A DNA stretch of 64,000 nt from an uncultured Acidimicrobiaceae bacterium. Its GTDB lineage: Bacteria; Actinomycetota; Acidimicrobiia; Acidimicrobiales; Bog-793. The notes below the pieces were generated by a model. That model had not been told where the DNA came from, made no database searches, and saw only the letters and a list, made by a program, of their open reading frames with translations. Position numbers and translations under genes: made by a program. Within the stretch, counting starts at the first letter, position 1; each line of letters begins with the position of its first letter. Shown here piece by piece: positions 9,280 to 53,816 of the stretch. The stretch spans positions 1,187,922-1,251,921 of the forward strand of contig CAWAVB010000001.1 in NCBI GenBank assembly GCA_963785415.1, given 5' to 3'.

Positions 9280-10338
9280 GTGGCCGACGATGCCGGCGGT
9301 GTCGCCCGCGGCCGCCACGGACGAAAACGGTCCCAGGCCGGGGCTCGGACTCTGACGACGCGACGCGTTTGGTTCGTCTCCGCGGGTCTCGTCGCCGGAA
9401 TCCTCGCCGCCGCCACCGCGTCCGCCGGGGCCGGGACGTCGACGACCGGGAACCTCCAGTCGCAGGCGAGCGCGATCGCCACCGAGCTCGCCCAGGACAA
9501 CAACCAGCTCAACTCGCTCGGCGAGCAGTACCTCACGGCGAAGTCCGAATACGACGCCGCCAGCGCCGCCGCCAGGCACACCTCCGGGGTCGTCGTGCGG
9601 ATCGAGCACCTCCTCGGCCACGACCGCAACGACGTGGCCGCCGCGGCGATCGGCGCCTACGTCACCGCCGGGAGTACGACCGACCTCGGGACGTACCTCC
9701 TCGAGAAACCGGACGAGGTCGCCGTCGAGCAGACCTACCTCAACTTCGCCTCGAACAAGCTCAGCTCGGCGATCGCGAGCTACCAGGGCGACGAGACCCG
9801 CCTGCGCACGTCGCTCGCCGTCGAGACCCACGAGGCCGCCGTCGCCAAGGAGGCGCTCGCCCGCACGACCGCGGCGCGCACGAGCGTCGTCGGCACGCTC
9901 CAGAGCGAGCAGCGGCTCTACGACTCGGTGCAGGGCCAGCTCGCCCGGCTCGTCGCCGCCCAGCTCGCCGCCCAGCAAGCCGCCCAGCAAGCGGCCGCGG
10001 CGAAGTCCCAGGCCGCGCAGGGCACCAACGGGAACCAGACGGGGCCACCGTCGCTCGCCGGCACCCAGGGGATCGGCACGTCACCGATCCCGAACGGTTC
10101 GCTCAGCCAGGACTTCGCCGAGCTGCGCAACTGCGAGGCGAGCGGCGACTACCAGACGAACACGGGGAACGGCTACTACGGCGCCTATCAGTTCGCGCTC
10201 GGGACCTGGCTCGGCCTCGGCGAGACCGGCCTGCCGAGCGACGCGTCACCCGCCGTGCAGGACGCGGCCGCCTACCTGCTCTACCAGCGCGACGGCTGGC
10301 ACCCCTGGCCGGCCTGCTCCGCCATTCTCAACCTGTAG
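9280..10338 (+). CDS. Resuscitation-promoting-factor (Rpf)-like lytic transglycosylase with an N-terminal membrane anchor/signal and a coiled-coil
   Basis: The C-terminus NCEASGDYQTNTGNGYYGAYQFALGTWLGLG...GWHPWPACS matches the Rpf transglycosylase-like domain (catalytic Glu in CE(A)S). GTG start at 9280. Confidence 0.85.
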   Translation: MADDAGGVARGRHGRKRSQAGARTLTTRRVWFVSAGLVAGILAAATASAGAGTSTTGNLQSQASAIATELAQDNNQLNSLGEQYLTAKSEYDAASAAARHTSGVVVRIEHLLGHDRNDVAAAAIGAYVTAGSTTDLGTYLLEKPDEVAVEQTYLNFASNKLSSAIASYQGDETRLRTSLAVETHEAAVAKEALARTTAARTSVVGTLQSEQRLYDSVQGQLARLVAAQLAAQQAAQQAAAAKSQAAQGTNGNQTGPPSLAGTQGIGTSPIPNGSLSQDFAELRNCEASGDYQTNTGNGYYGAYQFALGTWLGLGETGLPSDASPAVQDAAAYLLYQRDGWHPWPACSAILNL

Positions 10339-10339
10339 G

Positions 10340-14122
<3,783 letters not shown>

Positions 14123-25086: not shown

Positions 25087-25497
25087 TCAGCCGGATTTGT
25101 TCGGGCCGACGCGGCGCACGGTCATCTTCAGGAGCACGCGGCGGTCGCGCTCCATCGTCGCCCGGTAGTCGTCCCAGTCGGGGTGCTCTCCCGAAATCCG
25201 CCGGTAGTAGTCGACGAGTCCTTCCATCGCCTCCGGCAGCGACACCACCGCGATGTCACCTTCCACCTGGACCCAGTCGCCGAAGAAGCGTTCCGTGAAC
25301 ACGCAGAGCGAGGCGTAGGGCGTCCTTTTCACATTGATCGTCTTCATCGCGGTCTCGCGCGAGCTGACCTCGACGTACCCGTCGCCGTCGACGCCGGCCG
25401 TCACGGGCGAAAGCTGCACCCTGCCGTCCGCCCGTGTCGTTGCGAGCACGGCGCGGTGATGCTCGGCGACGAACTTCTTCGCTTCGATGATGTCCAT
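25087..25497 (-). CDS. Pyridoxamine-5'-phosphate-oxidase-fold (PPOX / F420-dependent class) protein
   Basis: ATG at 25497 gives MDIIEAKKFVAEHHRAVLATTRADGRVQLSPV, typical of the split-barrel FMN/F420-binding family. Confidence 0.7.
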   Translation of the reverse strand: MDIIEAKKFVAEHHRAVLATTRADGRVQLSPVTAGVDGDGYVEVSSRETAMKTINVKRTPYASLCVFTERFFGDWVQVEGDIAVVSLPEAMEGLVDYYRRISGEHPDWDDYRATMERDRRVLLKMTVRRVGPNKSG

Positions 25498-25672
25498 TCT
25501 CCGAGCGTAACCATGGGCGAGCTCGACCCTGATCGCGGACCGGGTCGAAACGCGAATACGCCGCGGACGGGTCGGCGCCCCACTGCCATGCGGGCGACGG
25601 CACCGACGAACAAACGGGGCGGGACCGACGACCACGTCCGGCGGCGCAACGGGCCGGAGCCCGCGGGCACCC

Positions 25673-26056
25673 CTAGTGCACGACTTGGCGATCCGGGGAG
25701 ATCTTCAAGATCACCCGCTCGCTTTCGATCTCGTTCGCGTAGGGCTTCCCCGTGTACTTCTCGGCGAGGAAGTCGATGTGGGCCCGGGCCTCGGGACCCC
25801 GCACCCGCTCCACGACCCGGCCGCGGATCTCCGCGTAGTGGTACGGATTCGTCGCGTCCATGACCGTCACCGTCGCCACCGGGTTCATCTCCACGTTCTT
25901 GAACTTGGTCCGGTGGATCTCGGTATTGACGAGGACGTGGTCGTCGTCAGCGTCGACCCACATGAGGTGCGTCATCGGGCGGCCGCTCGGAAGCATCGTC
26001 GTCAACGCGGCGAAGTTCTTCCCTCTGGCCAGTTCCTTCACGGTCGCATCGAGCAT
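25673..26056 (-). CDS. PPOX-fold (F420/FMN-binding split-barrel) protein
   Basis: AAGGAGG precedes the ATG at 26056. The sequence reads LARGKNFAALTTMLPSGRPMTHLMWVDADDDHVLVNT. Confidence 0.7.
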   Translation of the reverse strand: MLDATVKELARGKNFAALTTMLPSGRPMTHLMWVDADDDHVLVNTEIHRTKFKNVEMNPVATVTVMDATNPYHYAEIRGRVVERVRGPEARAHIDFLAEKYTGKPYANEIESERVILKISPDRQVVH

Positions 26057-26409
26057 CGTCGCCTCCTTGCAACGGGCGATCCAAAGAGATGGTGGCACGA
26101 AACGCGATCCCCCGCTCGTCCCATGTTGGACGACCTTGCCGTGACCGTCCAGTAGGGCTCGCCGGTCCAGAAGTCGTTTTGCGGAGCCTCCGTCCGAACT
26201 TCCCTGAGGTCACGGCCGACCCGTAGGATCAGGGCCGGCCTGTCTGGCACGGTCGCTCGGACGTCTTCGGGACACCGCCACCGTCGTGGGCCGGGCCGGC
26301 TGGGCCCCAGAGCGGCGCCTGAACGGTGTTCCGATAACAGTGAGCGCTCCAGTAACTGAGGATCCACGGGATCGCCGGACCGTCGGTGCCCGCTCCCGGG
26401 AGGCGTGAA

Positions 26410-36247: not shown

Positions 36248-36460
36248 GCCTTTCTCGCCGCCGGCGAACCGCGACGCGGCCCCAGAACCGGACGCGATAC
36301 GGACGGAACTAAAGTCTGTCTCGTCGCGCATGGGCGACAGGTGTGCCGGGAAGCCTGGTCGGCGAGGAAAGGACCGTGCCAGTGACCGTCGCCAGTCGTC
36401 AGGTGTCCCGCCGCCGCACCGTTGAACAGATCTCGTCCACCGATTCGTCGCGCGCCACAT

Positions 36461-37897
36461 CCGATGTCCGGGGCTGAGCTGCCGGTCGCCTCGCCTCCCG
36501 AGAGGCGCGGGCGGAGCGGGCGGGGCAGGCTGCCGAGCTGGCGGTGGGAGGCGCTCCGGACGACCTTCTGGTTCGTGCCGACCGTCCTCGTGCTCGTCGC
36601 GGGCCTGTTGTTCGTGGCCACGCTCGAGATCGACTGGGCCGTCTACCACAAGCACCTGGCGTTGCCGTTCTGGATCGCGACAATCAGCGCCGGCACGGGT
36701 CGCGAGGTGCTCATCGGGATCGCCGCGGCGATCATCACCGTCGTCGGCGTCGTGTTCTCAGTCACCATCGTGGCCCTCACCCTCGCCTCTCAGCAGTTCG
36801 GACCCCGCATGATGCGGAACTTCGTGCGGGACGTCGGCAACCAGATGACGCTCGGCGTCTTCGTCGCGACGTTCGTCTACTCGATCCTCACGCTCGTGGC
36901 GATCACGCGGGTCACCAACGGCACGTTCGTCCCCCACCTCTCGATCACCGTCTCCGAAGCACTCGTGCTCGTCGACCTGGCGGTGCTGATCTACTTCATC
37001 CACCACATCTCCAAGTCGATCCAGCTTCCCGAGGTCATCGCGAGCATCGCCACCGACCTCGTACGCGCGATCGACGCGGAATTCCCGGAGATCGCCTCGG
37101 ACGAACGCCCGCTGCCCGATGCGAGCGGAAGGTCACTGAACGAGATCCTCGGCCTCATCGATCAGCACGGGGCACCGGTCATCGCCAGCGCGAGCGGCTA
37201 TTTGCAGTTTGTCGGTTACGGGCAGCTGGTCGACATCGCGGCCCGGACCGATTCGGTCATCCGCCTCGCCTACAGCCCCGGGCACTTCATCGTGGCCGGC
37301 CGGCCGCTCGCCTCGATCTGGCCACCCGAGGCCGCCGACCAGGTGGCGATCGCGCTCGCCCGGGCCCACGTGACCGGACCCCACCGGACACTCATGCAGG
37401 ATCCCGTCTTCGCGATCGACCAACTCGTCGAGATCGCGATCCGCGCCCTCTCGGCGGCGGTCAACGACGCGTTCACGGCCATCACCTGCATCGACTGGCT
37501 ATCGGCGGGCCTCAGCCGCGTCTCGGGACGCGTCCTCGCGGAGGGCGTCTACCGGGACCGCGACGGGCGCATCCGGCTCATCGAAACGGACCCGTCGTAC
37601 GCCCGGATGGTCGACCGGGCCTTCGACAAGGTCCGTCAAGCGGCTCGCGGCATGCCGGCGATCATCCTCCGAATGATCGACGCCCTCGCCGCGATCGGCG
37701 ACCTGACGACGACCCCCGAACAGCGTCGGGTGCTCTTGCGCCAGGCCGACGCGATCTTGCGCGGCGCCGAGGAGTCCGTGTCGGAACCGAACGACCGCGC
37801 CGACATCCGAGCCCACTACGAGCGGTTGGTACGGCGATCGGCCGACCGCGACGCGGCGACCCATCGGTTCCCCGGCACGGCCGCGCTCGGGCAATGA
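36461..37897 (+). CDS. DUF2254-type membrane protein
   Basis: N-terminal TM segments (FWFVPTVLVLVAGLLFVATLEI, AAIITVVGVVFSVTIVALTLASQQFGPRMMRNF) followed by a large soluble domain. ATG 36461 is preferred over the track start because third-position GC is low before it. Confidence 0.65.
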   Translation, partial: PMSGAELPVASPPERRGRSGRGRLPSWRWEALRTTFWFVPTVLVLVAGLLFVATLEIDWAVYHKHLALPFWIATISAGTGREVLIGIAAAIITVVGVVFSVTIVALTLASQQFGPRMMRNFVRDVGNQMTLGVFVATFVYSILTLVAITRVTNGTFVPHLSITVSEALVLVDLAVLIYFIHHISKSIQLPEVIASIATDLVRAIDAEFPEIASDERPLPDASGRSLNEILGLIDQHGAPVIASASGYLQFVGYGQLVDIAARTDSVIRLAYSPGHFIVAGRPLASIWPPEAADQVAIALARAHVTGPHRTLMQDPVFAIDQLVEIAIRALSAAVNDAFTAITCIDWLSAGLSRVSGRVLAEGVYRDRDGRIRLIETDPSYARMVDRAFDKVRQAARGMPAIILRMIDALAAIGDLTTTPEQRRVLLRQADAILRGAEESVSEPNDRADIRAHYERLVRRSADRDAATHRFPGTAALGQ

Positions 37898-44361: not shown

Positions 44362-45048
44362 CTAGGCCCGGTGGTCGCGGTCCCCGCCCCAGGCGCCCAT
44401 CGACACGAGCCGGTCGCGGAACCCCGTCTCGTCCATGATCGTGCGCATCTCGGCCGCGGCGCGTTCCGACGGGAACATCGAGCCGAGGCCGAGCTCGTCG
44501 CGCAGCTCGTCGCGGCGGGCGATGAAGGCCCGCCACTTCGGGCCGAGCGCCTCGACCCGGTCGGCGAAGAAGACCTGCGGCGTGCCGCCGATCCCCTTGT
44601 CGTAGAACTGCTCGGCCCAGGCGGTGAACATCTCGACGTGCTTGATCCCGTAGCCCTCCTCGACCTGGAGCCCGCGGATGATCTGGTTGATGACGGCGAC
44701 GGAGTTGCCGCGCGGGCATCGGCTCTGGCACGTGTAGCAGTAGAAGCAGAGCCACACCGTGTCGTCGGAGAGCAGCGTCGGGTCGCCGTCGAGGGCGCGG
44801 CGGACGATCTCACGCGGTGAGTAGTCGCCGAAGCGGGCGGCGGGGCACCCCGAGGTGCAGATCCCGCACTGGATGCACGAGAGGAACCCCTCGACGTGGG
44901 CGTGCATGCGCGGGTCCGTGGCGATCCGCGCGGTGAGCTCGAGGTGCGCCGGCGGCGGCTCGGAAAAGGTGTTCTCGGCGATGACCGAGTACGGATTCGT
45001 GTGCGCGCCGTCGTCGGCGAGCGTCGTCGGCTCTTTCGTCTTAGGCAT
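44362..45048 (-). CDS. HdrC-like 2x[4Fe-4S] subunit with a C-terminal extension of about 110 aa
   Basis: ATG at 45048 (MPKTKE). Motifs CIQCGICTSGCP and CFYCYTCQSRCP. Overlaps the upstream gene by 8 nt. Confidence 0.8.
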   Translation of the reverse strand: MPKTKEPTTLADDGAHTNPYSVIAENTFSEPPPAHLELTARIATDPRMHAHVEGFLSCIQCGICTSGCPAARFGDYSPREIVRRALDGDPTLLSDDTVWLCFYCYTCQSRCPRGNSVAVINQIIRGLQVEEGYGIKHVEMFTAWAEQFYDKGIGGTPQVFFADRVEALGPKWRAFIARRDELRDELGLGSMFPSERAAAEMRTIMDETGFRDRLVSMGAWGGDRDHRA

Positions 45049-46186
45049 CGGATCCTCCGCGATCGGGCTTGTCGGGGGCGGCCCGGAAGAACTCGGGCCA
45101 GAAGTAGGCGGCCACGCCGGCGCGGCGGCGCCGGGCCGCGGACCGGACGTTGTCACGGCACAGAAGGCACGGCGTGACGATCGGGGCTTGCTCGGCAGCG
45201 GCGAAATCTAAGAGCGCCCCCACCTCCTCGCTCGGCCCCCGGTAGACGCCACCGAGGCCGCCGCAGCAGCCGGCGTGCAACGCGGGGTAGGAGATCACGG
45301 ACTCGGCACCGGCGAGCTCGGCCGCGTCGGCGAGGAGCGCCAGCGCGCCGTCCCGATCGGCGAGGCACCCGACGTAGGGCACGAAGCGCGCCGCGGCGGC
45401 CTCGAGCTTGCGCCCGTCGCGGCGGGCCGTCTCGACGAGGACCCGCCACACCGGCGTGACCTCTACCCCGGCGTCGCCGAGCGAACGGTCGCACGCCGGG
45501 CAGGCCGTCACGACCGCCCCGAGGCCGACGAGGTCCGCCGGCGGACAGGCGCCCGCCGGGTGGCCGCAGCACACGGCCCCGGTGGGCCGGACGAGCCCGA
45601 CGCCGAGCTCGGCGGCGAGACCCAGCGTGCCGGCGAGGAGGGACGGGTCGGCGTCGAGGGCGCAACCGGCGAAGAACGACACGTCCCCGTCCGCCGGCGC
45701 GGCGGAGCGGGGCGCGCGCCGGAACCGGCGGGCGACGCGGTGGACGCCCTGGGAGGCCGCGTCGACGAGATCGTCGGGAACGAAGCCCCGGACCGCCATC
45801 GCCGCGCCGAAGGCGACGGCGTCGACCGTCGGCTTTCTCGACAGGCGCCGCGTGGCGACGGCGGCGGCGCCGCGCTCGGGACAGCGCGGCCCCCCGAAGG
45901 CCTCCTGGAGCCGGCGCACGTCGGCCATCACGGCGGCGACGTCGACTCCCATCGGACAGGCCTCGTTGCAGGCGCCGCAGCCGGTGCAGCGCCACACGTC
46001 CTCGGCTGCGAGCAGCTCGTCGACGTCCCCCGCCAGCAGCTGCCGGATCACCCGGCGCGGGCCCTCGGCCATCGCGAGGCCCTGCGGGCAGGCGCTCCGG
46101 CACCGCCCGCACTGGTAACACGGCCGGCAACGCTCGGCGATCGCGGTGACGACTGAGCGTGCCTCCTCGGTGGCGACGGCCGTCAT
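45041..46186 (-). CDS. Soluble HdrD/GlcF-like fusion: HdrC-type ferredoxin domain + two CCG (HdrB-type) domains
   Basis: CYQCGRCRSACP and CTGCGACNEACP, then FFAGC...AVCCGHPAG...TACPAC and YVGC...AGCCGGLGG...TPCLLC. ATGA overlap with the upstream gene. Confidence 0.8.
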   Translation of the reverse strand: MTAVATEEARSVVTAIAERCRPCYQCGRCRSACPQGLAMAEGPRRVIRQLLAGDVDELLAAEDVWRCTGCGACNEACPMGVDVAAVMADVRRLQEAFGGPRCPERGAAAVATRRLSRKPTVDAVAFGAAMAVRGFVPDDLVDAASQGVHRVARRFRRAPRSAAPADGDVSFFAGCALDADPSLLAGTLGLAAELGVGLVRPTGAVCCGHPAGACPPADLVGLGAVVTACPACDRSLGDAGVEVTPVWRVLVETARRDGRKLEAAAARFVPYVGCLADRDGALALLADAAELAGAESVISYPALHAGCCGGLGGVYRGPSEEVGALLDFAAAEQAPIVTPCLLCRDNVRSAARRRRAGVAAYFWPEFFRAAPDKPDRGGSDA

Positions 46187-48580
46187 GACGATCCCCCGCC
46201 GATCCCCGCCAGGGCGGGGTCGGCTCCGGTAGCCCGCTCATCGGCGAGCCTCTCGGCGTGGGCGCAGAAGGTGCGGAGCCGGCGCCCGACGGTGTGGCGC
46301 TCCGCGGCGCACAGGTGCCACTGCTCGATCGGCATCGGGTTGCCCGCCTCGGCGAGGAGCTCTACCGCCACGGCGATCTGCTCGGCGGCGCTCCGGTCGC
46401 CGCCCCGGTACTGGCAGCGGTCCTCGGCGCAGCCGGCGAGGAAGACCCCCGCCGCACCGAGCCGCGCCGCCTCGACGAGGTGCAGCGCGCTCACCCGCCC
46501 GAGGCAGGGCAGCTCGACGAGGCGCACGTTTTCCGGGTAGCGGTCGCGGCGCACCCCCGCCAACGAGAAGGCGGCGCCGGCACACTCGGCGCAGACGAAT
46601 CCGACGACGGGGTGGTCCGCGCCCTCGACGAGCGTGCGCACCCGGCCGAGCAGCGTCTCGTCGTCGAGGCCGTGGGCGATCGCCAGCTCCGGGCAGTGCG
46701 CGGCGCAGATCCCGCAGGCCCGGCAGCGGTCGGCGTCGACGACGGCGATCATCGCGTCGTCGCGCAGCCCTGCCGGGCGCGGCGCGTCGGCGGAGCGCGG
46801 CGACAAGACCCATCGCCCCGAACGGGCAGGCGCCCGTGCAGACGTCGCATCCGACACAGCGCGACCCGTCGATCGTCGGGGCCGCCGCGGGACGCCGGGA
46901 CGTCGAGGTGAGGTAGCGGTGGACCTGACCCGCCGCCGCGGACGCCTGGGACGAGGACTCGGCGAGCGACTTCGGCCCGGAGGCGGATCCGCAGACGAAC
47001 ACACCCTCGGCCGACGTCTCGGTCGCCCGGTTCTTCGCGTCGAGGACGTCGACGAAGCCCGCGGCGTCGAGTCGCGCGCCGAGCACCCCGGCGACGCGCT
47101 CGGTGTCGGCGGACGGCACGAACCCAGTCGACAAAACGACGAGATCGGGCCGGAGCACCCGCTTCACGCCGGCACCCACGTCCTCGACCTCCACGACGGG
47201 CCGTTTGTCGCCGTCGAGCTCGACCCGGGGCGGGGAGCCCCGCAGGAACTCGACGCCGGCCGCGCGCGCCGCCGTGTACCAGCTCTCCCCCTCGGTGCCG
47301 AGGGTGCGCAGCTCGAGGTAGCAGACTGTGACCCGCGTCGTCGGGAACAGCCTTCGCAACCGGATGGCGTGCTTCAGGGCGATCGTGCAGCAAAGCCGCG
47401 AGCAGTACGGCAGGCGCCGCAGGTCACGTGACCCGGCGCACTGGACCATGACGACGTCCCCGACCGGGGGCCGGTCGAGCCAGAGCCGCTCCTCCCAGCC
47501 GTCAAGCACGGGCGCGAACTCGGTCTGGGTGAGCACCCGTTCGGCGGGGTAACCGAGGTGGGCGACGAGCTCCGCGGGGGCGGGGTCGCAACCGGTGGCG
47601 GCGACGATCGCGCCGGCCCGGATCGTGGCGAGCCGCGGCGACTGGGTGAAGTCGATCGCCTCGACCGGGCACGCCTCGGCGCAGGCGCCGCAGAACGTGC
47701 AGCTGTCGAGGTCGACCGCCCAGCGGACCCGGCCGTCGAACAGCTCTGAGTAGATCGCCTTGTGCTCGCCGTCCGGCCCGGTGACCCCGCACGCCTTCTC
47801 GCACAGACCGCAGTCGACGCAGTCCTGCGTCACCATGTTCGGGAGCTGGCGGAGGGTGACCTCGAACCCGCCCGGTTCGCCGGACACCGACTCCACCTCG
47901 GTGCGCCGCCAGATCGCGAGGTTCGGGTGGTCGACGGCCGCGTTCCGGAAAAGGCAGCGGCGGACCCCGGACTGCTCCTCGACCGTCGGCAGGCACGCCC
48001 CGCAGTCGTTCGTCGGGTAGGCCGTGCCGATCCGGGTGGCGTAGCCGCCGAGGAACGCCTGGCGCTCGACGAGGTCGACGTGATGGCCCATCCGGGCGAG
48101 CTCGGTCGCCGTGGCGATGCCGGCGACGCCCCCGCCCAAGACGACCACCGAATCGACCCGTGCCGCGGGGGCGGCCGGCCGGGGACGGGCCGCGGGGAAC
48201 CGCAGGGCCGCCCGGGCGATGCGCAGGGCCTTGTCGGTGACCGCCGTGCGATCCTCGCCGTGGACCCAGGAACAGCCTTCCCGGACGTCGGCCACCTCGA
48301 GAGAAAGGCCCAGAGCCGCGAGGTTTCCGAAGCGCTGCGCGACGGAGTCCGCCGAGCAGCCGACGAACACCAGGCGCTCGCCCGTCCCGTTTTCGGCGAG
48401 CTCGGCGAGCCGGGCCCGACCCTCGCGTCCGCACCACACCCGGCGCCGTTCGACCGGTCCCCCGTCGTCGGCGAGCCCGCGCTCTACGACGCCGAAGTCG
48501 ACGTTCGCCGCCATCGTCCCGGCGCACTCGCAGACAAGGGTGCGCGCGCCCCCGGGGGCACCCGCGTCGGATCCCGTCAC
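46183..48580 (-). CDS. HdrA-like flavoprotein continuing, after a +1 frame break near 46770-46815, into a second [4Fe-4S] motif and an MvhD domain (QmoB-like architecture)
   Basis: GTG at 48580 forms a GTGA overlap with the ferredoxin stop. Frame A carries LVCECAGTMAANVD, VVVLGGGVAGIATATELA and ...CVGCDVCTGACPFGAMGLV. Frame B continues with AVVDADRCRACGICAAHCPELAI and VVGFVCAECAG...LPCLGRVS...GCAEDRCQYRGGD. The interval is 2398 nt (3n+1), and frame A has no stop until 46238. Confidence 0.7.
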
Positions 48581-49029
48581 GCCAGCACCGCAGTGGCAAA
48601 GCTTCTCGTTGCCGCGAGGCACCCGAGATCGGCCCCGTCGACCGGCCGCGCCGTCACCGCACCGGTCGGACAGGCGCGCGTGCACGCCCCACAGCCGAGA
48701 CAGCGGTCGCGGTCGAACTCGATCGTCCGAAAGGTCCGCACCCGGTCGGGGACCTCGAACGAACCGTCCGGCTCGTGGCGGGCGATCCGTCGCAGGCAGG
48801 CACCGAGGGCTCCGCGCGTCGTCCCGGCGGGCGCGTCGTAGAGCTGGAGCGGATCGAAAAGTGCACTCTCGGCAATGGCGGCGGACGGGCAGACCTTGAC
48901 GCATCGACCGCAGCCGATGCAGAGCTCCTCGTGGCGGACGATCTCGCAACCGATCCCGTCGGTCGCCGTCTTGGGCGCCACTCCGGGGAGCGAACCCAGC
49001 ATCTCCCGTCCGCGGGCGGTGAGCGGCAT
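48577..49029 (-). CDS. 2x[4Fe-4S] ferredoxin-domain protein
   Basis: CIGCGRCVKVCP and CLGCGACTRACP motifs separated by about 70 aa. Confidence 0.75.
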   Translation of the reverse strand: MPLTARGREMLGSLPGVAPKTATDGIGCEIVRHEELCIGCGRCVKVCPSAAIAESALFDPLQLYDAPAGTTRGALGACLRRIARHEPDGSFEVPDRVRTFRTIEFDRDRCLGCGACTRACPTGAVTARPVDGADLGCLAATRSFATAVLA

Positions 49030-49032
49030 CGC

Positions 49033-49512
49033 CTACCGCCTCGACAGCCGGGGCAGGCCCGAGATCGTCGCGTGCATCCGGCGTGTCGCGGCGACGAAGC
49101 GCGGCGAGTCGTTGGCGCTCATCGTGAACATCTGGACGCGCTCGGGCTCGACCCCCACGGATTCCAGCAAACGTTGGACGAAGGCGACCCGGTCGAGCGC
49201 CGACAGGTTCCCTTCCCGGTAGTGGCACTGGCCCTCGAGGCAGCCGGCCACGAAGACGCCGTCGGCCCCCTCGGCGAGGGCACTCAGCACGTGGAGGGGA
49301 CTGACGCGGCCGGTGCACGGCATGAGCACGCTGCGAACGGTGGTCGGCAACGGGACGCGTGCATTCCCGGTCGCGTCGGCGGCGGCGTAGGCACATTCCC
49401 GGCAGAAGAACCCGATGATCGTGCGTCCACTGTCGTCGGCGTCTGATCCGTCCGGGCCCTTCGGGACGGGCGCGACCGTCCCGGGAACGAGCGCAGCCGG
49501 GACGCTAGGCAC
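49033..49512 (-). CDS. MvhD/FlpD-like (methyl-viologen-reducing hydrogenase delta subunit family) protein
   Basis: IIGFFCRECAYAAAD...MPCTGRVSPLHVLSALAEGADGVFVAGCLEGQCHYREGN matches the MvhD Cys pattern. Overlaps the hdrA2 stop by 8 nt. Confidence 0.8.
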   Translation of the reverse strand: MPSVPAALVPGTVAPVPKGPDGSDADDSGRTIIGFFCRECAYAAADATGNARVPLPTTVRSVLMPCTGRVSPLHVLSALAEGADGVFVAGCLEGQCHYREGNLSALDRVAFVQRLLESVGVEPERVQMFTMSANDSPRFVAATRRMHATISGLPRLSRR

Positions 49513-52500
49513 GGGCGGTCACCTCGGCGAGAATCTCGGCATCCGAGAAGCCGCCGAGGGTCATCGCCCCGGACGGGCACTCGGCGACGCAGATGCCGCA
49601 GCCCCGGCAGCTCTCCGACTCGACGACGGCGTGGGCGGGCACGCCGTCGACGAGGTGCACGGCGCCCTGGGGACAGACGTTCTCGCAGACGCCGCAACCG
49701 ATGCAAACCTCGGGATCGGACCAGGCGACCTCGGCGGGGGTCATGAGGAAGCCGCTCGAGAGCATCGACATCACGCGGGCCGCGGCCGCCTTGGCCTGGG
49801 CGATCGTGTCCGGGATGTTCTTCGGGCCCTGGGCGGTCCCGGCGACGAAGACGCCGGCGCGCTGGGTGTCCACCGGGCGCAGCTTGGGGTGGTACTCCTT
49901 CAGGAAGCCCGCGGCGTCCTGCTGCAGGCCGGCCACCCGGGCGATCTGCGCCGTCCCGTCCGAGCCCTCGAGCCCGGCGGAGAGCACGACGAGGTCGAAC
50001 AGCTCCTCGGTCTTGCGCCCGGTCACAGTGTCCTCGAAGCGGACCCGGAGCCGTTGGTCGGGCTCCTCGATCAGCTCGCCGACCCGGGTGCGGACGTAGC
50101 GAACCCCGCGGGTCGCCACCAGCCGGTAGTACTCCTCGTGCGCCTTGCCGGGCGCCCGCAGGTCCGTGTAGCCGATCGTCACCTCGCACTCGGGATGGTC
50201 CTGTCTGATGAGCGAGGCATGCACCGTGGCGAAGAGGCAGCAGATCGCCGAGCAGTGCGTGTTGCCCCGTGAGGTCTGGTCGCGCGAGCCGACGCACTGC
50301 AGCATGAAGATCCGCTTCGGCGTCTCGCCATCGGAGGGCCGCCGCAGCTCGCCGCCGGTCGGCCCCGAGGCGGAGACGAGGCGGGCGAGCTGGCTCTGGG
50401 TGATCACGTTGGCGTACCGGCCGAACCCGAGCGGAGGCTTGCGCCGGGCGTCGAACTCGCGGTGGCCCGTGGCGATCACCATCGCGCCGACCGTCAGCTC
50501 CTCCTCCCACGGCTCCTGGTCGAAATCGATGGCGTGCGCCGGACAGACCGTCTCGCAGGAACGGCAGTCGCAGCAGCCGCCGCAGGCGACGCAGCGCCGC
50601 GCCTCGGCGACGGCGTCGTCTTCGCTGAGCCCGAGGCGCACCTCGCCCCAGGTCCCCCTGCGCTCCTCGGGGGCGGCCATCGGCATGGGCCGGCGCCGCT
50701 GTGGCCTGCCCGACGGCAGGTCGGCGTCCGCCACCTCGGCTGTCGGGCGGCCGGGTTGCCAGACCTCCGCCCACTCCTCGCCGCGCAGGAAGTTGTGGAT
50801 CGCGCGAGCGGCGCGCCGTCCGTCGGCGATCGCCTCGACCGGGGTCGAGAGCCCCGGCACCGCGGCACGGCCCGCTGCGAACACGCCGGGCCGCTCCGTG
50901 AGAAGCGTCGCCCGGTCCGTGACGACCTGTCTGCCGGCCACCCGGACGCCCGTCGCGCCCACGAGGAACCCCTCGTCGATCTCCGAACCGTCCGCCAAGA
51001 CGACAGAGTCCACGGCGATCTCGCGCGGCTCTTCGCCCGCCCGGGCAAGGAACCGGAGGGCGCCGGCGGCACCGTCTTCCGAGATCTCGACCGGCACGAG
51101 CCCGCAGGCGAGCTCGACCCCTTCGTCGACCGCCTCGGTGACGAGCTCCGGCTGAGCGGCAAGGGCCGGGCGGTCCTCGGCGCAGGCGACCGTGACGGTT
51201 TGCGCGCCAAGCCGCAGGCAGCTGCGGGCGGCGTCGAAGGCGGCGTCGCCGCTCCCGACCACGACCACCCGCCGTCCGATCGCGACCGGCTCGCCCGTGG
51301 CGCGGGCGCCCAGCAGCTCGGCGGCCGAGACGACACCAGGCCGGTCCGATCCGGGAAGCGTCGAGGTCGCGGCACGCTGGCGACCGACGGCGAGCAGCAC
51401 CGCCTGGTAACCGGAGGAAACAAGGGAGTCCACGGTGAAGTCCGCCCCACAACGCTCGCCGGCCCGGAACTCGACGCCGTGGGCGAGCACGCGCCCGACC
51501 TCCTGGTCGAGGAGCTCGCGCGGCAGACGGAACTCCGGGACGAGGCGACGCAGCTCCCCGCCCGCTTCGGGCTGCGCCTCGAAGACAGTGACGTGGTAGC
51601 CGAACCGGGCGAGCTCCCGCGCCGCGGTGAGCCCCGCGGGGCCGGCGCCCACGACGGCGACCTTCTCCTCGTACACCGCCGGGGGGGCGACGACTGGGGG
51701 CGCCGCCGTGACGCGGTCAGCGACGAAGCGCCCGACAGCGGCGATCGCGACGGGCTCGTCGACCCGGCCCCTCGTGCACGCGGTCTCGCACTCGTGGCCA
51801 CAGACCCGGCCGCACACGCTCGGGAACGGGTTCTCCCGACTCGCCAGCTCGTAGGCGTCGGCGGTGCGCCCCTGGGCGACGAGGGCGGCAACCCCCTGGG
51901 CGGCGGTGTGCACCGGGCAGACCGCCACACAGGGCGCCCAGCCGCGGTAGTCGATCGCGAACCCCGCGGGGACCGCGTTGGCGAACGGCCGTCCGATTGC
52001 CTTGCGCTTCGCCATGCCGAAGTCGAAGGCGCTCTCCAGCTCGACCGGACACGCCGAGGTGCACCGCCCACAGGCCACACAGCGCTCGGAGACGTAGCTC
52101 GGACGGTGGAGCACCCGCACCCGCAGCTCGCCCGGCGGGCCGACCACGGACGTCACCTCGGAGAGGGTGTGGACGTGGATGCGTGAGTCCGTCGCGGCGT
52201 TGGCGAGACGTGGCGCGAGCGAGCACATCGCGCAGTCCTCGGTCGGGAAGGTCTTCGACAAGCGTGCCATGTAACCGCCGAGCGACTGCTCGCGTTCGAC
52301 GATGTGTACCTCGATGCCCGCGTCGGCGAGCTCCTCGGCAGCGGACATCCCGCCGATCCCCCCACCGACGACGACCGCGGAACGGTGCAGGAACGTCCGG
52401 GTCCGCGTCAGGTCGGACTGCTGGGTCGCGCGGGCGACCGCCGCGGCGAGGATCGTCTCGGCCTTTTGCTGCGCCTTCGCCGGTTCGTCGCGGTGGACGA

Positions 52501-52807
52501 ACGAACAGCCTTCGCGCAGATTGGCGAAGGCCACGGCGTTCTCACCCAGGCGCAGCTCGCGCGCGATGCGCTCGAACGTCGGGCCCTGGACGCGCCGCGA
52601 GCAAGCGCCGATCACGATGTGGTCGAGTCCCCGCGACTGCACGGCCCGCTCGATGCGCCGCCGTCCCTCGGTGCCACACATGAACTGGCTGACCGACACG
52701 TTCACGACACCGGGCAGGGCGCGACCACCGGCGGCGAGGGACCTGAGGTCCAGGACGTCGGAGATGTTGCCCCCGCACTCGCAGAGGAAGACGCCGCAGC
52801 GCGTCAG
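49505..52807 (-). CDS. Giant HdrA-like flavoprotein with an inserted GltD/NfnB-like NAD(P)H-binding FAD/FeS module (HdrL-like)
   Basis: The HdrA N-terminal domain (GVFLCECGGNISDVLDL...IVIGACSRR...FANLREGCSFVH) is followed by VVVGGGIGGMSAAEELA. The insert carries NPFPSVCGRVCGHECETAC, VAVVGAGPAGLTAARELA and VVVVGSGDAAFDAA. HdrA then resumes (FMLQCVGSRD...CSAICC) and ends with two C-terminal CxxCxxCxxxCP motifs. Start assigned to the CTG at 52807 (see findings). Confidence 0.8.
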   Translation of the reverse strand: MTRCGVFLCECGGNISDVLDLRSLAAGGRALPGVVNVSVSQFMCGTEGRRRIERAVQSRGLDHIVIGACSRRVQGPTFERIARELRLGENAVAFANLREGCSFVHRDEPAKAQQKAETILAAAVARATQQSDLTRTRTFLHRSAVVVGGGIGGMSAAEELADAGIEVHIVEREQSLGGYMARLSKTFPTEDCAMCSLAPRLANAATDSRIHVHTLSEVTSVVGPPGELRVRVLHRPSYVSERCVACGRCTSACPVELESAFDFGMAKRKAIGRPFANAVPAGFAIDYRGWAPCVAVCPVHTAAQGVAALVAQGRTADAYELASRENPFPSVCGRVCGHECETACTRGRVDEPVAIAAVGRFVADRVTAAPPVVAPPAVYEEKVAVVGAGPAGLTAARELARFGYHVTVFEAQPEAGGELRRLVPEFRLPRELLDQEVGRVLAHGVEFRAGERCGADFTVDSLVSSGYQAVLLAVGRQRAATSTLPGSDRPGVVSAAELLGARATGEPVAIGRRVVVVGSGDAAFDAARSCLRLGAQTVTVACAEDRPALAAQPELVTEAVDEGVELACGLVPVEISEDGAAGALRFLARAGEEPREIAVDSVVLADGSEIDEGFLVGATGVRVAGRQVVTDRATLLTERPGVFAAGRAAVPGLSTPVEAIADGRRAARAIHNFLRGEEWAEVWQPGRPTAEVADADLPSGRPQRRRPMPMAAPEERRGTWGEVRLGLSEDDAVAEARRCVACGGCCDCRSCETVCPAHAIDFDQEPWEEELTVGAMVIATGHREFDARRKPPLGFGRYANVITQSQLARLVSASGPTGGELRRPSDGETPKRIFMLQCVGSRDQTSRGNTHCSAICCLFATVHASLIRQDHPECEVTIGYTDLRAPGKAHEEYYRLVATRGVRYVRTRVGELIEEPDQRLRVRFEDTVTGRKTEELFDLVVLSAGLEGSDGTAQIARVAGLQQDAAGFLKEYHPKLRPVDTQRAGVFVAGTAQGPKNIPDTIAQAKAAAARVMSMLSSGFLMTPAEVAWSDPEVCIGCGVCENVCPQGAVHLVDGVPAHAVVESESCRGCGICVAECPSGAMTLGGFSDAEILAEVTARA

Positions 52808-53751
52808 TCGCTCCTTCCCTCTTGGGCCGGCACGCTCGAGCGTTTCCGGGCGCCGATGCGTTCGAGCAGCGGCTCGAGGTTCTGGGAGTGGGCCTCGACG
52901 CCGCAGACCGTGTCCGGGTCGGCTCCGAGGGCGAGCGCCACGAGCTGCTGCACGTGGAGGTGGACGAAGGGATACTCCTCGCCGGAGGACGCCGAGATGG
53001 CGTCGTGGTAGCGGTCGAACTGGACCGAGCAGTTCGGGCACATGTGGACGAGCACGTCGATCTTCTCGGCCGCCAGTCGCCGCAGCTTCTCCCGGGTGAC
53101 GGCGAGCGAGCGCGAGGGGTTGACGAAGATCTGACGGAATCCGGCGCCGCAGTGCGTCGTCTTTTCGGGGTAGTTCCCGGTCTTCTCGACGCCCATCGGT
53201 TCGAGCAGGTCCTCGGGAAGCATGAAGTTCTCGCTGTCCCCGAGCACCTCGTCAGGGAAGACCTTGCAGTAGTGGCACGCCGGGTGGGTCGCGACCTTGA
53301 GGCCCGACAGCCGCCGACGGATGAGGTCGGGGATCTGTCGGTGCCGGCTCCAGAGGATCTCGAGGGTGTGGCGGTGCTGGATCGTGCCGGCGATGCGGTC
53401 GTCGTAGCGGCGGCCGATCTTCGCGAGCGTCTCGTTCGCCTGCCGCCGGTACTCGGGGACGTTCAGCACGTCGCGGCACTTCTTGTTGATCGCGTAGCAC
53501 GTCGAGCACAGGTACGACTGGACCGGGTGGTCTGCCTCCACCGCCACGCAGGCGTTGCGCGCCGCGACGGCGAGGGTCGTCTGGAACGGCATGAGGTCGG
53601 AGTAGTAGCCGAGCCCGGTGCAGCAGGTCTGGTCCGTGTTGACCGTGTACTCCACGTCGAGCCGCTCGAAGAGCCACTTCGTCGCCGCCTCGACCCCCGG
53701 GTACTCGGAGGACACGAGGCAGCTCCGGAAGAGCTGTACCCCGCCTTTGAT
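52804..53751 (-). CDS. HdrB-like subunit with two CCG domains
   Basis: LFRSC-X31-CCTGLG...CSTC, and ACHYC...THCGAGFR...MCPNC. The first canonical start (GTG 53715) lies after the first conserved Cys, so the 5' end is placed at the in-frame ATC 53751. This is uncertain. Confidence 0.75.
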   Translation of the reverse strand: MKGGVQLFRSCLVSSEYPGVEAATKWLFERLDVEYTVNTDQTCCTGLGYYSDLMPFQTTLAVAARNACVAVEADHPVQSYLCSTCYAINKKCRDVLNVPEYRRQANETLAKIGRRYDDRIAGTIQHRHTLEILWSRHRQIPDLIRRRLSGLKVATHPACHYCKVFPDEVLGDSENFMLPEDLLEPMGVEKTGNYPEKTTHCGAGFRQIFVNPSRSLAVTREKLRRLAAEKIDVLVHMCPNCSVQFDRYHDAISASSGEEYPFVHLHVQQLVALALGADPDTVCGVEAHSQNLEPLLERIGARKRSSVPAQEGRSD

Positions 53752-53787
53752 GGGGTCGATGTCTGGCGTCGTCTGGGGGATGTCTCT

Positions 53788-53816
53788 TACTTAATCAAAT
53801 CTATGGAGCTTGTCAA
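53788..53816 (-). promoter_or_regulatory. Candidate promoter for the hdr-type operon: TTGACA -17 nt- TAAGTA
   Basis: A perfect TTGACA (53816-53811, minus strand) sits in a locally AT-rich patch (cttacttaatcaaatctatggagcttgtcaagttaatgg). The -10 match is weak. Confidence 0.3.

Follow-up and report, generated by a model that had tools for sequence, protein, structure and literature searches.

Genes encoding proteins that resemble heterodisulfide reductase (Hdr) are common outside methanogens, and what these enzymes reduce in bacteria without coenzyme M (CoM), coenzyme B (CoB) or DsrC is a long-standing question. It is raised anew by a locus from an uncultured Acidimicrobiaceae bacterium, which lies in a stretch of 64,000 nucleotides (nt) of contig CAWAVB010000001.1 (positions 1,187,922 to 1,251,921; assembly GCA_963785415.1) that is referred to below as the window. 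The content of guanine plus cytosine (G+C) in the window is 72-75 %. Seven genes (G1 to G7) occupy the minus strand of its region 44362-53781, and together they encode every subunit type of the methanogen complex with the corresponding ligands. We propose, with moderate confidence, that their products would form one soluble Fe-S flavoprotein complex of the HdrABC-MvhD type, which would act as a self-sufficient, NAD(P)H-driven bifurcating reductase of a disulfide and of ferredoxin.

Composition of the seven-gene Hdr module

The first-pass annotation of this DNA described a chain of seven minus-strand Hdr-type genes holding each module of the methanogen-type core in two copies, and both statements are borne out by Pfam and NCBIfam profile searches, which agree with the domain content of G1-G7, and by the gene junctions, which were read directly from the sequence. 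G1 and G2 overlap by 4 nt (CTGA), G2 and G3 by 8 nt, and G6 and G7 again by 8 nt; the G4/G5 and G5/G6 overlaps are GTGA and ATGA, and a gap of 3 nt separates G3 from G4. The inventory comprises two HdrA proteins, two MvhD modules, an HdrB plus an HdrC, a fusion of HdrC- and HdrB-type parts, and one additional ferredoxin-like protein (Table 1). None of the seven proteins contains a transmembrane segment, and no selenocysteine was found in the module.

The giant HdrA encoded by G2 carries an N-terminal CxC cluster domain, an FAD site (GGGIGG, amino acid (aa) 148), a DCAMC motif with the equivalents of Cys194 and Cys197, and inserted and C-terminal ferredoxin domains. It aligns with the methanogen HdrA 8rvv_A in two pieces (aa 3-286 with 2-286, and aa 745-1098 with 290-640), and its HdrA core is, by this alignment, very close to the solved protein. 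Between the two pieces, at HdrA positions 286/290, an insert of ~457 aa separates the two cluster motifs that belong to the inserted ferredoxin domain of HdrA. Pfam recognizes Pyr_redox_2 (1.2e-35) and Fer4_20 (DPD domain II, 2.3e-18) at aa 291-662, inside HdrA, and matches to the insert in the Protein Data Bank (PDB) include 9bov_A (290 bits), NfnB 4ylf_B (207 bits) and GltD 2vdc_G (126 bits). Besides the 2x[4Fe-4S] domain of Fer4_20, the insert contains two Rossmann motifs, one for FAD (GAGPAG, aa 387) and one for NAD(P)H (GSGDAA, aa 518), and the Fe-S domain and both motifs are invariant among relatives; the region after the second Rossmann motif departs from the family consensus in the window. 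With both Rossmann motifs intact and invariant, the earlier suggestion that the GltD/NfnB-like insert would be a built-in point of entry for NAD(P)H is strengthened. As in HdrL loci, mvhD (G3) lies directly downstream of this gene.

The second HdrA, encoded by G5, had been described as apparently fused to a ferredoxin motif plus MvhD. At all related loci for which gene calls were read, one gene of 776-820 aa encodes the whole fusion, and in the window it is split by a frameshift. Pfam finds FAD_oxidored and Fer4 in one frame, then Fer4 and FlpD (8.3e-24) in the other; the HdrA part runs down to 46798, and the second Fe-S motif and MvhD occupy 46797-46183. The split is caused by a single extra C at 46799/46800 (GTCGCCGCGC versus GTCGCGCGC), and on the HdrA2 model of NCBIfam the two frames cover positions 5-596 and 600-773, so that nothing is missing except the reading frame. 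The extra C is absent from four metagenome contigs in ENA (L001-L004), whose operons are 99.7-99.96 % identical to that of the window and whose G5 is intact (776-798 aa). Three of these contigs (L002-L004) themselves differ by one base in a stretch of G close to the G5 start (GGGG at ~15163 versus GGGGG in the window and in L001), which shifts the called start downstream; single-base assembly errors are therefore plausible in these contigs, and the extra C may be either an assembly error or a very recent mutation of the strain. A programmed frameshift was considered and rejected, since there is no slippery site or in-frame stop and the four near-identical contigs have no extra C; the difference is treated as a simple indel.

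Once repaired, G5 gives a full-length HdrA alignment (254 bits to 5odc_A) followed by a match to MvhD (5odc_D, 50 bits). Both G2 and the repaired G5 thus align over the full length of HdrA (8rvv_A, 5odc_A), a protein with an FAD-binding thioredoxin-reductase fold and clusters in N-terminal, inserted and C-terminal ferredoxin domains, with all Cys motifs kept, including the N-terminal CxC domain and the DCxxC pair with the equivalent of Cys197. The ANME-type argument for an obligate heterodimer, in which one HdrA is without Cys197 and the other without the N-terminal domain, was set aside because both HdrA proteins keep both features.

The remaining electron carriers also retain their ligands, with the MvhD ([2Fe-2S]) and HdrC (2x[4Fe-4S]) subunits of a methanogen-type complex represented by G3 and G7. 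G3 has a GTG start and five invariant Cys residues, and G7 has an ATG start and eight. In G4 a long spacer separates two CxxCxxCxxxC motifs, and eight Cys residues plus one further Cys are invariant in 77 sequences. G6 combines an HdrC-like 2x[4Fe-4S] N-terminus with two complete CCG motifs (C175..CC206/207..C229xxC232 and C274..CC307/308..C340xxC343), the layout shared by HdrD, GlpC, GlcF, LutA and EtfD, and all of its Cys residues are invariant in 61 sequences. Its homologues (271 hits) are confined to this module; no family-specific hidden Markov model reaches its cutoff, and the NCBIfam matches to GlcF, GlpC and TfrB are weak. An AlphaFold (AF2) model of G6 (mean predicted local distance difference test, pLDDT, 80.7) has its best fold matches in Mycobacterium smegmatis EtfD (9ojn, E 1.2e-6), a LutA model and HdrC. 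The protein is soluble and HdrD-like.

G1 aligns end to end with the HdrB of a solved complex (130 bits to PDB 5odc_B), and of the two canonical CCG motifs of HdrB (Cx31-39CCx35-36CxxC) it has only the first. Its N-terminal CCG domain is canonical (C21-x31-CC-x37-CxxC), and its C-terminal domain is a variant, C169-H-Y-C172 ... H210-C211-G ... C248-xx-C251. There, His replaces the first Cys of the second CC pair (the HCG motif H210-C211-G212, window 53146-53154), and three residues past the Cys that opens the domain there is a new one, C172 (HPAC-HY-C). All 76 of the 76 family members compared have both H210 and C172. When 1.84 billion cluster representatives were scanned in full with HMMER, the family fell under one representative at 70 % identity, with the next full-length relative at 42 % and all others at or below 37 %; among ~100 full-length HdrB-like representatives, Cys172 and His210 are combined only in the family and the 42 % relative, and the remaining ones have a residue other than Cys at 172 and nearly all keep CC at 210/211. 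The two residues of this CHYC/HCG site thus covary, and a relocated cluster ligand is the best reading of the change.

The relative at 42 % is an HdrB of Methanosphaera, which belongs to a family of Methanobacteriales proteins listed by NCBI as ferredoxin:CoB-CoM heterodisulfide reductase HdrB. A C[HQ][YF]C motif is present in 116 of 119 sequences of this family, in which most members have TCG at the second site and 15 have HCG, and the genes sit in hdrC-hdrB-hdrA/MvhD clusters. Identity to the Methanobacteriales proteins is 38-41 % for G1, 38-40 % for G7 and 30-31 % for G5. The HCG motif singled out earlier in the stand-alone HdrB is therefore real, and an altered cluster site is supported; by itself it is no pointer to a special substrate, because methanogen paralogues (HdrB2) show the same rearrangement and it is invariant in the family. 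The motif is of interest for cluster chemistry.

The 5' end of the operon, previously set at 53751, was revised. The first canonical start codon of G1 (GTG, 53715) would give a protein of 303 aa without Cys21, the essential first Cys in the segment FRSC, yet this segment is conserved as protein in every relative. In other clades G1 starts with an ATG located 22 codons upstream of the GTG position, and the codon aligned with it is ATC, ATA or ATT in all seven loci of the Acidimicrobiales clade (window 53779-53781), six of which have a stop codon three codons before this start; the ATC at 53751 is GTC in the closest relative. These observations together place the start at the ATC at 53781. G2 likewise has no ATG, GTG or TTG start. 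The ATG found in other clades (others use ATG or GTG) is ACG here (window 52802-52807), and a CTG at 52807, one codon upstream of the ACG and inside the CTGA overlap with the G1 stop, is present in six of seven clade members. As the non-canonical starts of G1 and G2 are kept over seven loci spanning 82-96 % identity, weak initiation looks selected.

An AT-rich box ends 6 nt before the ATC start of G1, in a genome of 72 % G+C, and TAACTTGACAAG...TTTGATTAAGTAAGA is conserved in the seven Acidimicrobiales-clade loci. The box suggests a promoter that would produce a nearly leaderless transcript starting at a non-AUG codon, which would be unusual. Because the consensus scanner made no call there, we infer this promoter from its elements and conservation; the scan gave no promoter call and only unconvincing terminator matches, and a check for inverted repeats upstream of G1 yielded none that was clear.

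Table 1. Genes and other elements of the Hdr module, with their positions in the window
Feature	Position	Strand	Length (aa)	Matches or elements
G1, HdrB-like	52804..53781	-	325 (from ATC)	Pfam CCG 1.9e-14; NCBIfam HdrB NF041780 319 bits (cutoff 450)
G2, giant HdrA ('HdrL'/type III HdrA)	49505..52807	-	1100	HdrA 8rvv_A 546.6 bits; NCBIfam HdrA2 694 bits
GltD/NfnB-like insert of G2 (aa 289-745)	50573..51943	-		Pfam Fer4_20, Pyr_redox_2; NCBIfam PRK12771 417 bits, gltA 239 bits
G3, MvhD-type [2Fe-2S]	49033..49512	-	159	Pfam FlpD 1.6e-41; VhuD 118 bits
G4, 2x[4Fe-4S] ferredoxin-like	48577..49029	-	150	Pfam Fer4 6e-18, two stretches
G5, second HdrA + ferredoxin motif + MvhD	46183..48580	-	798 (repaired)	type Ia, HdrA2-like
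G6, soluble HdrD-like	45041..46186	-	381	Pfam Fer4_17 2.8e-12, CCG 1.5e-5
G7, HdrC-like	44362..45048	-	228	NCBIfam hdrC_Methbact 203 bits (cutoff 270); Pfam Fer4_8
Promoter-like AT-rich box	53788..53816	-		TTGACA (53816-53811), 17-nt spacer, TAAGTA (53793-53788)

Inheritance and surroundings of the module

The distribution of the module was examined in a genome collection with one genome per GTDB species, in which 419 stretches matched the search pattern. Relatives of G2 are encoded by 389 of these stretches, and the best 80 all come from metagenome-assembled genomes (MAGs); close relatives number in the hundreds and are 1056-1156 aa long, and their habitats include peat, fen and sediment. Identity to G2 is 82-96 % in Acidimicrobiales/Acidimicrobiaceae from peat bogs and Danish soils, 68-70 % in Candidatus Dormibacteria and allies, 56-66 % in Thermoleophilia/Gaiellaceae, 66 % in one Binatia MAG and 39 % in one Caldisericota MAG. 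The closest genome, at 96 %, is an Acidimicrobiales MAG, which agrees with the Actinomycetota origin first assumed for this DNA.

When all seven proteins were compared with 84 related loci by tblastn, the same seven genes were found in the same order in 63 and 19 more end at contig ends, so the arrangement seen in the window is conserved in related genomes. Of the other loci, L089 stops after G2, and only the distant Caldisericota locus is organized differently. In L089 (Thermoleophilia, 10001-12729) the giant HdrA match ends at residue 896 and none of G3-G7 follows despite ~4.7 kb of remaining contig; this is either a disrupted copy or a misassembly. Within the clade of the window, the seven genes have ratios of nonsynonymous to synonymous substitution rates (dN/dS) of 0.07-0.44, with HdrB at the low end and G6 at the high end. 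Given this synteny and purifying selection, the operon is a conserved functional unit rather than a chance cluster and is not generally decaying in this lineage. The block is inherited as a unit across four or more lineages of phylum or class rank. In addition, the identities of G2 depart from the species tree, as the Acidimicrobiales copy of the window is closer to that of Dormibacteria than to that of Thermoleophilia from the same phylum, and the Binatia MAG holds a bare block between two regulators. Together these features point to the spread of the whole cassette by lateral transfer among peat and soil lineages.

Electron-input partners and other familiar Hdr contexts had been reported missing, and for the window this is confirmed by scans of its open reading frames (ORFs), which found no gene for a hydrogenase (MvhAG included), Fdh (FdhAB), Qmo (QmoC), Apr (AprAB), Dsr or a lipoate protein (sHdr-LbpA), no CoM or CoB gene, and no FlxABCD, with no flx gene at the module either. 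No LutB/C, GlcD/E or GlpA/B dehydrogenase partner and no membrane anchor was found, and there is no NfnA-like gene, NfnB-like sequence being present solely as the domain within HdrA. None of the seven proteins scores above 41 bits with the QmoC model of NCBIfam, whose cutoff is 300. Around related loci, dsr, apr and qmo genes are likewise missing from the flanks. All-against-all clustering of six-frame ORFs from the flanks of ~85 loci returned no partner gene that recurs from one clade to another. Since the block is inherited without any such gene, it must hold its own donor site.

What adjoins the block differs from clade to clade. The convergent cydABDC operon noted beside G7 is real, and cydD and cydC lie convergently downstream in all seven Acidimicrobiales-clade loci; they do so in none elsewhere, so this synteny is clade-specific and a general link to cytochrome bd does not stand. 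In Thermoleophilia, hemE-hemH-hemY (the last a hemY-like amine oxidase) lies divergently upstream and NadA or BrkB downstream; this heme-gene flank was seen at L008-L010 and at 38 Thermoleophilia-clade loci, many of which have NadA downstream, and these neighbors probably reflect inherited vertical synteny, although genes for heme and Fe-S cofactors recur among them. A ComA (phosphosulfolactate synthase) gene beside L008 was considered as a link to CoM and rejected as a chance neighbor, since it is found at no other locus. The flanks of the Binatia locus contain only LysR- and ArsR-type regulators. In 13 of 15 Dormibacteria-clade loci, genes for PFOR, a DHODH-like protein, a small ferredoxin, HoxE/F/U/Y/H and HypA precede the module on the same strand. 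In L007 (1-8888) these upstream genes mostly overlap, with ~160-230 nt between hypA and hdrB, and the PFOR-Hox chain and the Hdr module may form one very long redox operon. This context links the module to ferredoxin, NAD(H) and H2 pools, through a hydrogenase that is NiFe Hox-type and not Mvh-type, and the absence of electron-input partners therefore holds for the window and not everywhere.

The rest of the window consists of ordinary housekeeping, transport and glycoside hydrolase genes, including DUF2254, GH94, GH1, a peptide-type ABC transporter, mfd, prs, glmU-like, enolase, ppx and mazG; scans of the window for Rfam families and tRNAs gave none. The gene for the DUF2254 membrane protein (36386-37897; Pfam 8.3e-111) immediately precedes cydA and shares its strand. 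Two adjoining genes of the PNPOx family are located at 25090-26209, a weak hint that the organism may use F420, as Actinomycetota members of this family include F420-dependent reductases. In one MAG (L011, 1708-4242) a SufB gene upstream of the module contains an intein with a LAGLIDADG endonuclease domain.

Relation to known Hdr systems

An Hdr set of this kind is not without precedent, as the Syntrophobacter fumaroxidans cluster Sfum_0819-0824 comprises hdrABC and genes for HdrL, MvhD and an FeS protein; proteomics revealed this cluster only in the presence of sulfate, and what it does is speculative (PMC5947623). The HdrL architecture was named in Desulfobacterium autotrophicum, which has HdrL-MvhD loci (PMC2702500). 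These sets share with the module an HdrA/GltD fusion followed by mvhD, a small 4Fe-4S protein, a second HdrA, HdrB and HdrC, and they are also soluble, contain no hydrogenase catalytic subunit and have only a predicted function, NADH-linked bifurcation or confurcation (PMC5947623; PMC2702500). Compared with the published description of the Sfum cluster (PMC5947623), the whole set of HdrA, HdrB, HdrC, FeS protein, MvhD and HdrL is present here, plus an HdrD. In contrast, the order there is A-B-C-FeS-D-L, whereas here it is B-L-D-Fdx-A/D-HdrD-C; here the soluble HdrD-like protein is extra, an MvhD is fused to the second HdrA, and HdrB is of the CHYC/HCG type. The hosts differ as well: they are Actinomycetota, Dormibacteria and Binatia of peat and soil, the surroundings of the module contain neither DsrC nor genes of sulfate reduction, and in the clade of the window a cytochrome bd operon adjoins it. 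Composition is thus known from sulfate-reducer gene sets, and gene order, the HdrD-like addition, the MvhD fusion and the CHYC/HCG HdrB set the module apart.

The architecture of G2 also occurs in ANME-1 and Bathyarchaeota, as HdrA9-11 or type III HdrA; according to the published proposal, the insert would close the ferredoxin site and let NAD(P)H in (PMC9012536; PMC12054007). In these archaea, as here, a GltD/NfnB-like FAD/NAD(P)H module of ~450-500 aa lies within the inserted ferredoxin domain of an HdrA that is otherwise complete. Electrons are proposed to come from or go to NAD(P)H, and there may be two bifurcating flavins in the protein. However, the archaeal proteins amount to nine sequences, found with mvhADG or other Hdr genes in archaea that use CoM and CoB, whereas those described here are bacterial, abundant and part of a fixed seven-gene block, and the NAD(P)H motif is GxGxxG there and GxGxxA here.

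Other systems share fewer features with the module. HdrA2B2C2 and the Methanobacteriales clusters have the HdrA-MvhD fusion seen in G5; those of Methanobacteriales include the nearest outside relatives of G1 and G7 (38-41 %), have the CHYC motif and have lost the first Cys of the second CCG pair. Unlike the module, HdrA2B2C2 consists of three genes and couples F420H2, ferredoxin and the reduction of CoM-S-S-CoB, which has been demonstrated only for Methanosarcina acetivorans, and its oxidation of F420H2 is bifurcating (PMC5296606); the bacterial module adds HdrL, MvhD, the ferredoxin-like protein and HdrD, and its scores fall under the NCBIfam cutoffs. The MvhAGD-HdrABC complexes of hydrogenotrophic methanogens (5odc, 8rvv) have the same subunit types and cluster ligands, with G3 being a typical MvhD, but here there is no MvhA or MvhG, input would occur via an internal NAD(P)H domain, the two HdrA proteins are different, the second CCG site of HdrB is variant and a CoM/CoB context is missing. 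FlxABCD-HdrABC of Desulfovibrio is a functional analogue, in which NADH oxidation feeds HdrABC via an MvhD-like subunit with ferredoxin and DsrC as proposed acceptors; its NADH module is made of the separate FlxABC proteins, in place of the GltD-like insert found here. QmoABC differs in its cytochrome b domain (QmoC) and its apr context, as no transmembrane helix and no apr genes occur here, and the NfnAB transhydrogenase differs in its NfnA subunit ([2Fe-2S] plus FAD, NAD-binding), which has no counterpart in the module.

The sHdr system of sulfur oxidizers (HdrC1B1A-Hyp-C2B2 plus lipoate-binding proteins) also places two HdrB/HdrC-type modules in one operon of oxygen-respiring bacteria. Its HdrA is, however, only ~350 aa long and without ferredoxin domains (PDB 6tjr_A matches part of G2 with 155 bits and G5 with 92 bits), and it has no MvhD and no NAD(P)H module. 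A similar role in sulfur oxidation is unlikely for the block, as it would need a short HdrA and genes for lipoate-binding proteins, neither of which is present. Literature searches turned up no paper on the seven-gene module for Thermoleophilia, Gaiellales, Dormibacteria, Acidimicrobiia or peat.

Proposed reaction, competing explanations and significance

The analysis demonstrates the gene content, the cofactor-binding motifs, the joint inheritance of the seven genes, purifying selection and solubility; from these features we infer that a complex forms, how electrons would pass through it, that it bifurcates, in which direction it would run and what kind of acceptor it would use. The predicted complex would contain three flavins, two [2Fe-2S] clusters, about two dozen [4Fe-4S] clusters and four CCG-type clusters. 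NAD(P)H would be oxidized at the GltD/NfnB-like FAD domain of G2, which lies within the inserted ferredoxin domain, the ferredoxin exit of canonical HdrA, and electrons would then reach the HdrA flavins via [4Fe-4S] chains. G3 MvhD, the C-terminal MvhD of G5 and G4 would probably bridge both HdrA subunits. High-potential electrons would leave via G7 to G1, and via G6, for a disulfide or a similar substrate of CCG domains, while low-potential electrons would pass to ferredoxin (Fd) via the unobstructed inserted ferredoxin domain of G5. The net reaction would be 2 NAD(P)H + R-S-S-R' + 2 Fd(ox) -> 2 NAD(P)+ + RSH + R'SH + 2 Fd(red), reversible in principle. Entry of NAD(P)H is proposed because the geometry of the insert matches that described for type III HdrA (PMC12054007; PMC9012536), and the first-pass idea of an NAD(P)H-linked, possibly ferredoxin-coupled reductase coincides with roles proposed for HdrL and type III HdrA (PMC2702500; PMC9012536; PMC12054007), although as a function it stays a prediction.

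Several observations weigh against this proposal. All seven proteins miss the NCBIfam equivalog cutoffs (319 of 450 bits for HdrB, 203 of 270 for HdrC and 694 of 1100 for HdrA2), the second CCG site of HdrB is rearranged, and in the window G1 and G2 begin with weak start codons and G5 contains a frameshift. The NAD(P)H motif is of the GxGxxA type and the usual Arg pair past the next strand is not conserved in the window, and the motifs do not discriminate between NADH and NADPH. The argument for a heterodimer made for the ANME proteins is inapplicable to G2 and G5. No candidate gene for a thiol, DsrC, TusA or lipoate protein lies near the module in any clade, CCG proteins also act on substrates other than disulfides, of which the EtfD and LutA folds matched by the G6 model are a reminder, and literature searches turned up no biochemical study of an HdrL or type III HdrA complex.

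The alternatives differ in which of these features they stress. The same hardware might run in reverse or without a free disulfide, as a device that confurcates or balances redox state under fermentative or micro-oxic conditions, and this reading has a modest chance of being correct. Ferredoxin (from PFOR) and a thiol or another mid- or high-potential donor would then yield NAD(P)H, to be removed by the Hox hydrogenase or the respiratory chain, a direction favored for HdrL-type complexes by the authors of the S. fumaroxidans and ANME studies (PMC5947623; PMC9012536). It would suit the peat, fen and sediment habitats and the PFOR, small ferredoxin and HoxEFUYH-HypA genes immediately upstream in the Dormibacteria clade, but that link is restricted to a single clade, a thiol donor would require a separate route of re-reduction, for which none is visible, and the sequence gives no direction. 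An F420-linked enzyme like Methanosarcina HdrA2B2C2, in which G5 with HdrB and HdrC would oxidize F420H2 and couple the F420, NAD(P)H and ferredoxin pools, is doubtful. The Methanobacteriales clusters that contain the nearest outside relatives of G1 and the 38-41 % relatives of G7 take their NCBI names from HdrA2B2C2, the type that depends on F420H2 and ferredoxin, the HdrA2 model is covered by G5 from one end to the other, the window contains the PNPOx pair, and the host phyla Actinomycetota and Chloroflexota-related lineages are the main bacterial producers of F420. Against this, the module is linked to no gene that makes F420 or depends on it, G5 is only 30-31 % identical to archaeal HdrA2, the F420 site of HdrA2 is undefined, and the built-in NAD(P)H module already provides a donor.

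It is improbable, too, that the CCG modules act on an organic acid, a quinone-like compound or another small molecule, as LutA, GlcF, GlpC, TfrB and EtfD do, which would make the complex an NAD(P)H:X oxidoreductase. The structural matches of G6 to EtfD and LutA, its weak NCBIfam matches to GlcF, GlpC and TfrB and the altered cluster site of HdrB would fit such a role; but G1 and G7 score far higher with the models of true HdrB (319 bits) and HdrC (203 bits) than with those of any other CCG family (at most 56 bits), the proteins do not fall into the GlcDEF, LutABC or glutamate-synthase families, and LutB/C, GlcD/E and GlpA/B partners and a membrane anchor are missing. That the operon is a decaying relic in this organism and yields no working complex is very improbable. 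The frameshift in G5, the ATC start of G1 and CTG or ACG start of G2, and the departure from consensus past the second Rossmann motif could be read as decay, but G5 is intact in four independent assemblies that are nearly identical, the one-base differences in the G run make an assembly error plausible, the unusual starts are kept across the clade with the downstream protein conserved, and dN/dS is low enough (0.07-0.44) to argue for constraint on all seven genes.

The NAD(P)H-driven bifurcating reductase proposed above also has a more elaborate form, for which we see a small chance: a three-flavin enzyme (one flavin of the NfnB type and two of the HdrA type) with two linked bifurcations and separate HdrBC and HdrD disulfide arms, which would yield ferredoxin of very low potential straight from NAD(P)H at the expense of a bacterial low-molecular-weight (hetero)disulfide. 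If true, this would be a bacterial counterpart of the CoM-S-S-CoB cycle, with a rearranged His-containing non-cubane cluster, in oxygen-respiring or facultative soil Actinomycetota and Dormibacteria.

No new principle emerges from the sequence evidence. The module is nevertheless a clean test case for the question of what bacterial Hdr-like proteins reduce, with its built-in donor site, no partner gene recurring between clades and a strict seven-gene block, and it is near enough to solved methanogen structures for modeling. The CHYC/HCG rearrangement, common to Methanobacteriales HdrB2, offers a concrete target for spectroscopy and mutagenesis. The module is also widespread in abundant uncultured peat and soil lineages, namely Acidimicrobiales, Thermoleophilia/Gaiellaceae, Dormibacteria and Binatia. 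If it proves to be just another redox-balancing Hdr variant, it would still provide a useful annotation for several hundred genomes in which these proteins are now labeled 'FAD-dependent oxidoreductase'. If it bifurcates from NAD(P)H, HdrA-based bifurcation would extend to bacteria that also carry a cytochrome bd oxidase, which would thereby gain a route to low-potential ferredoxin.

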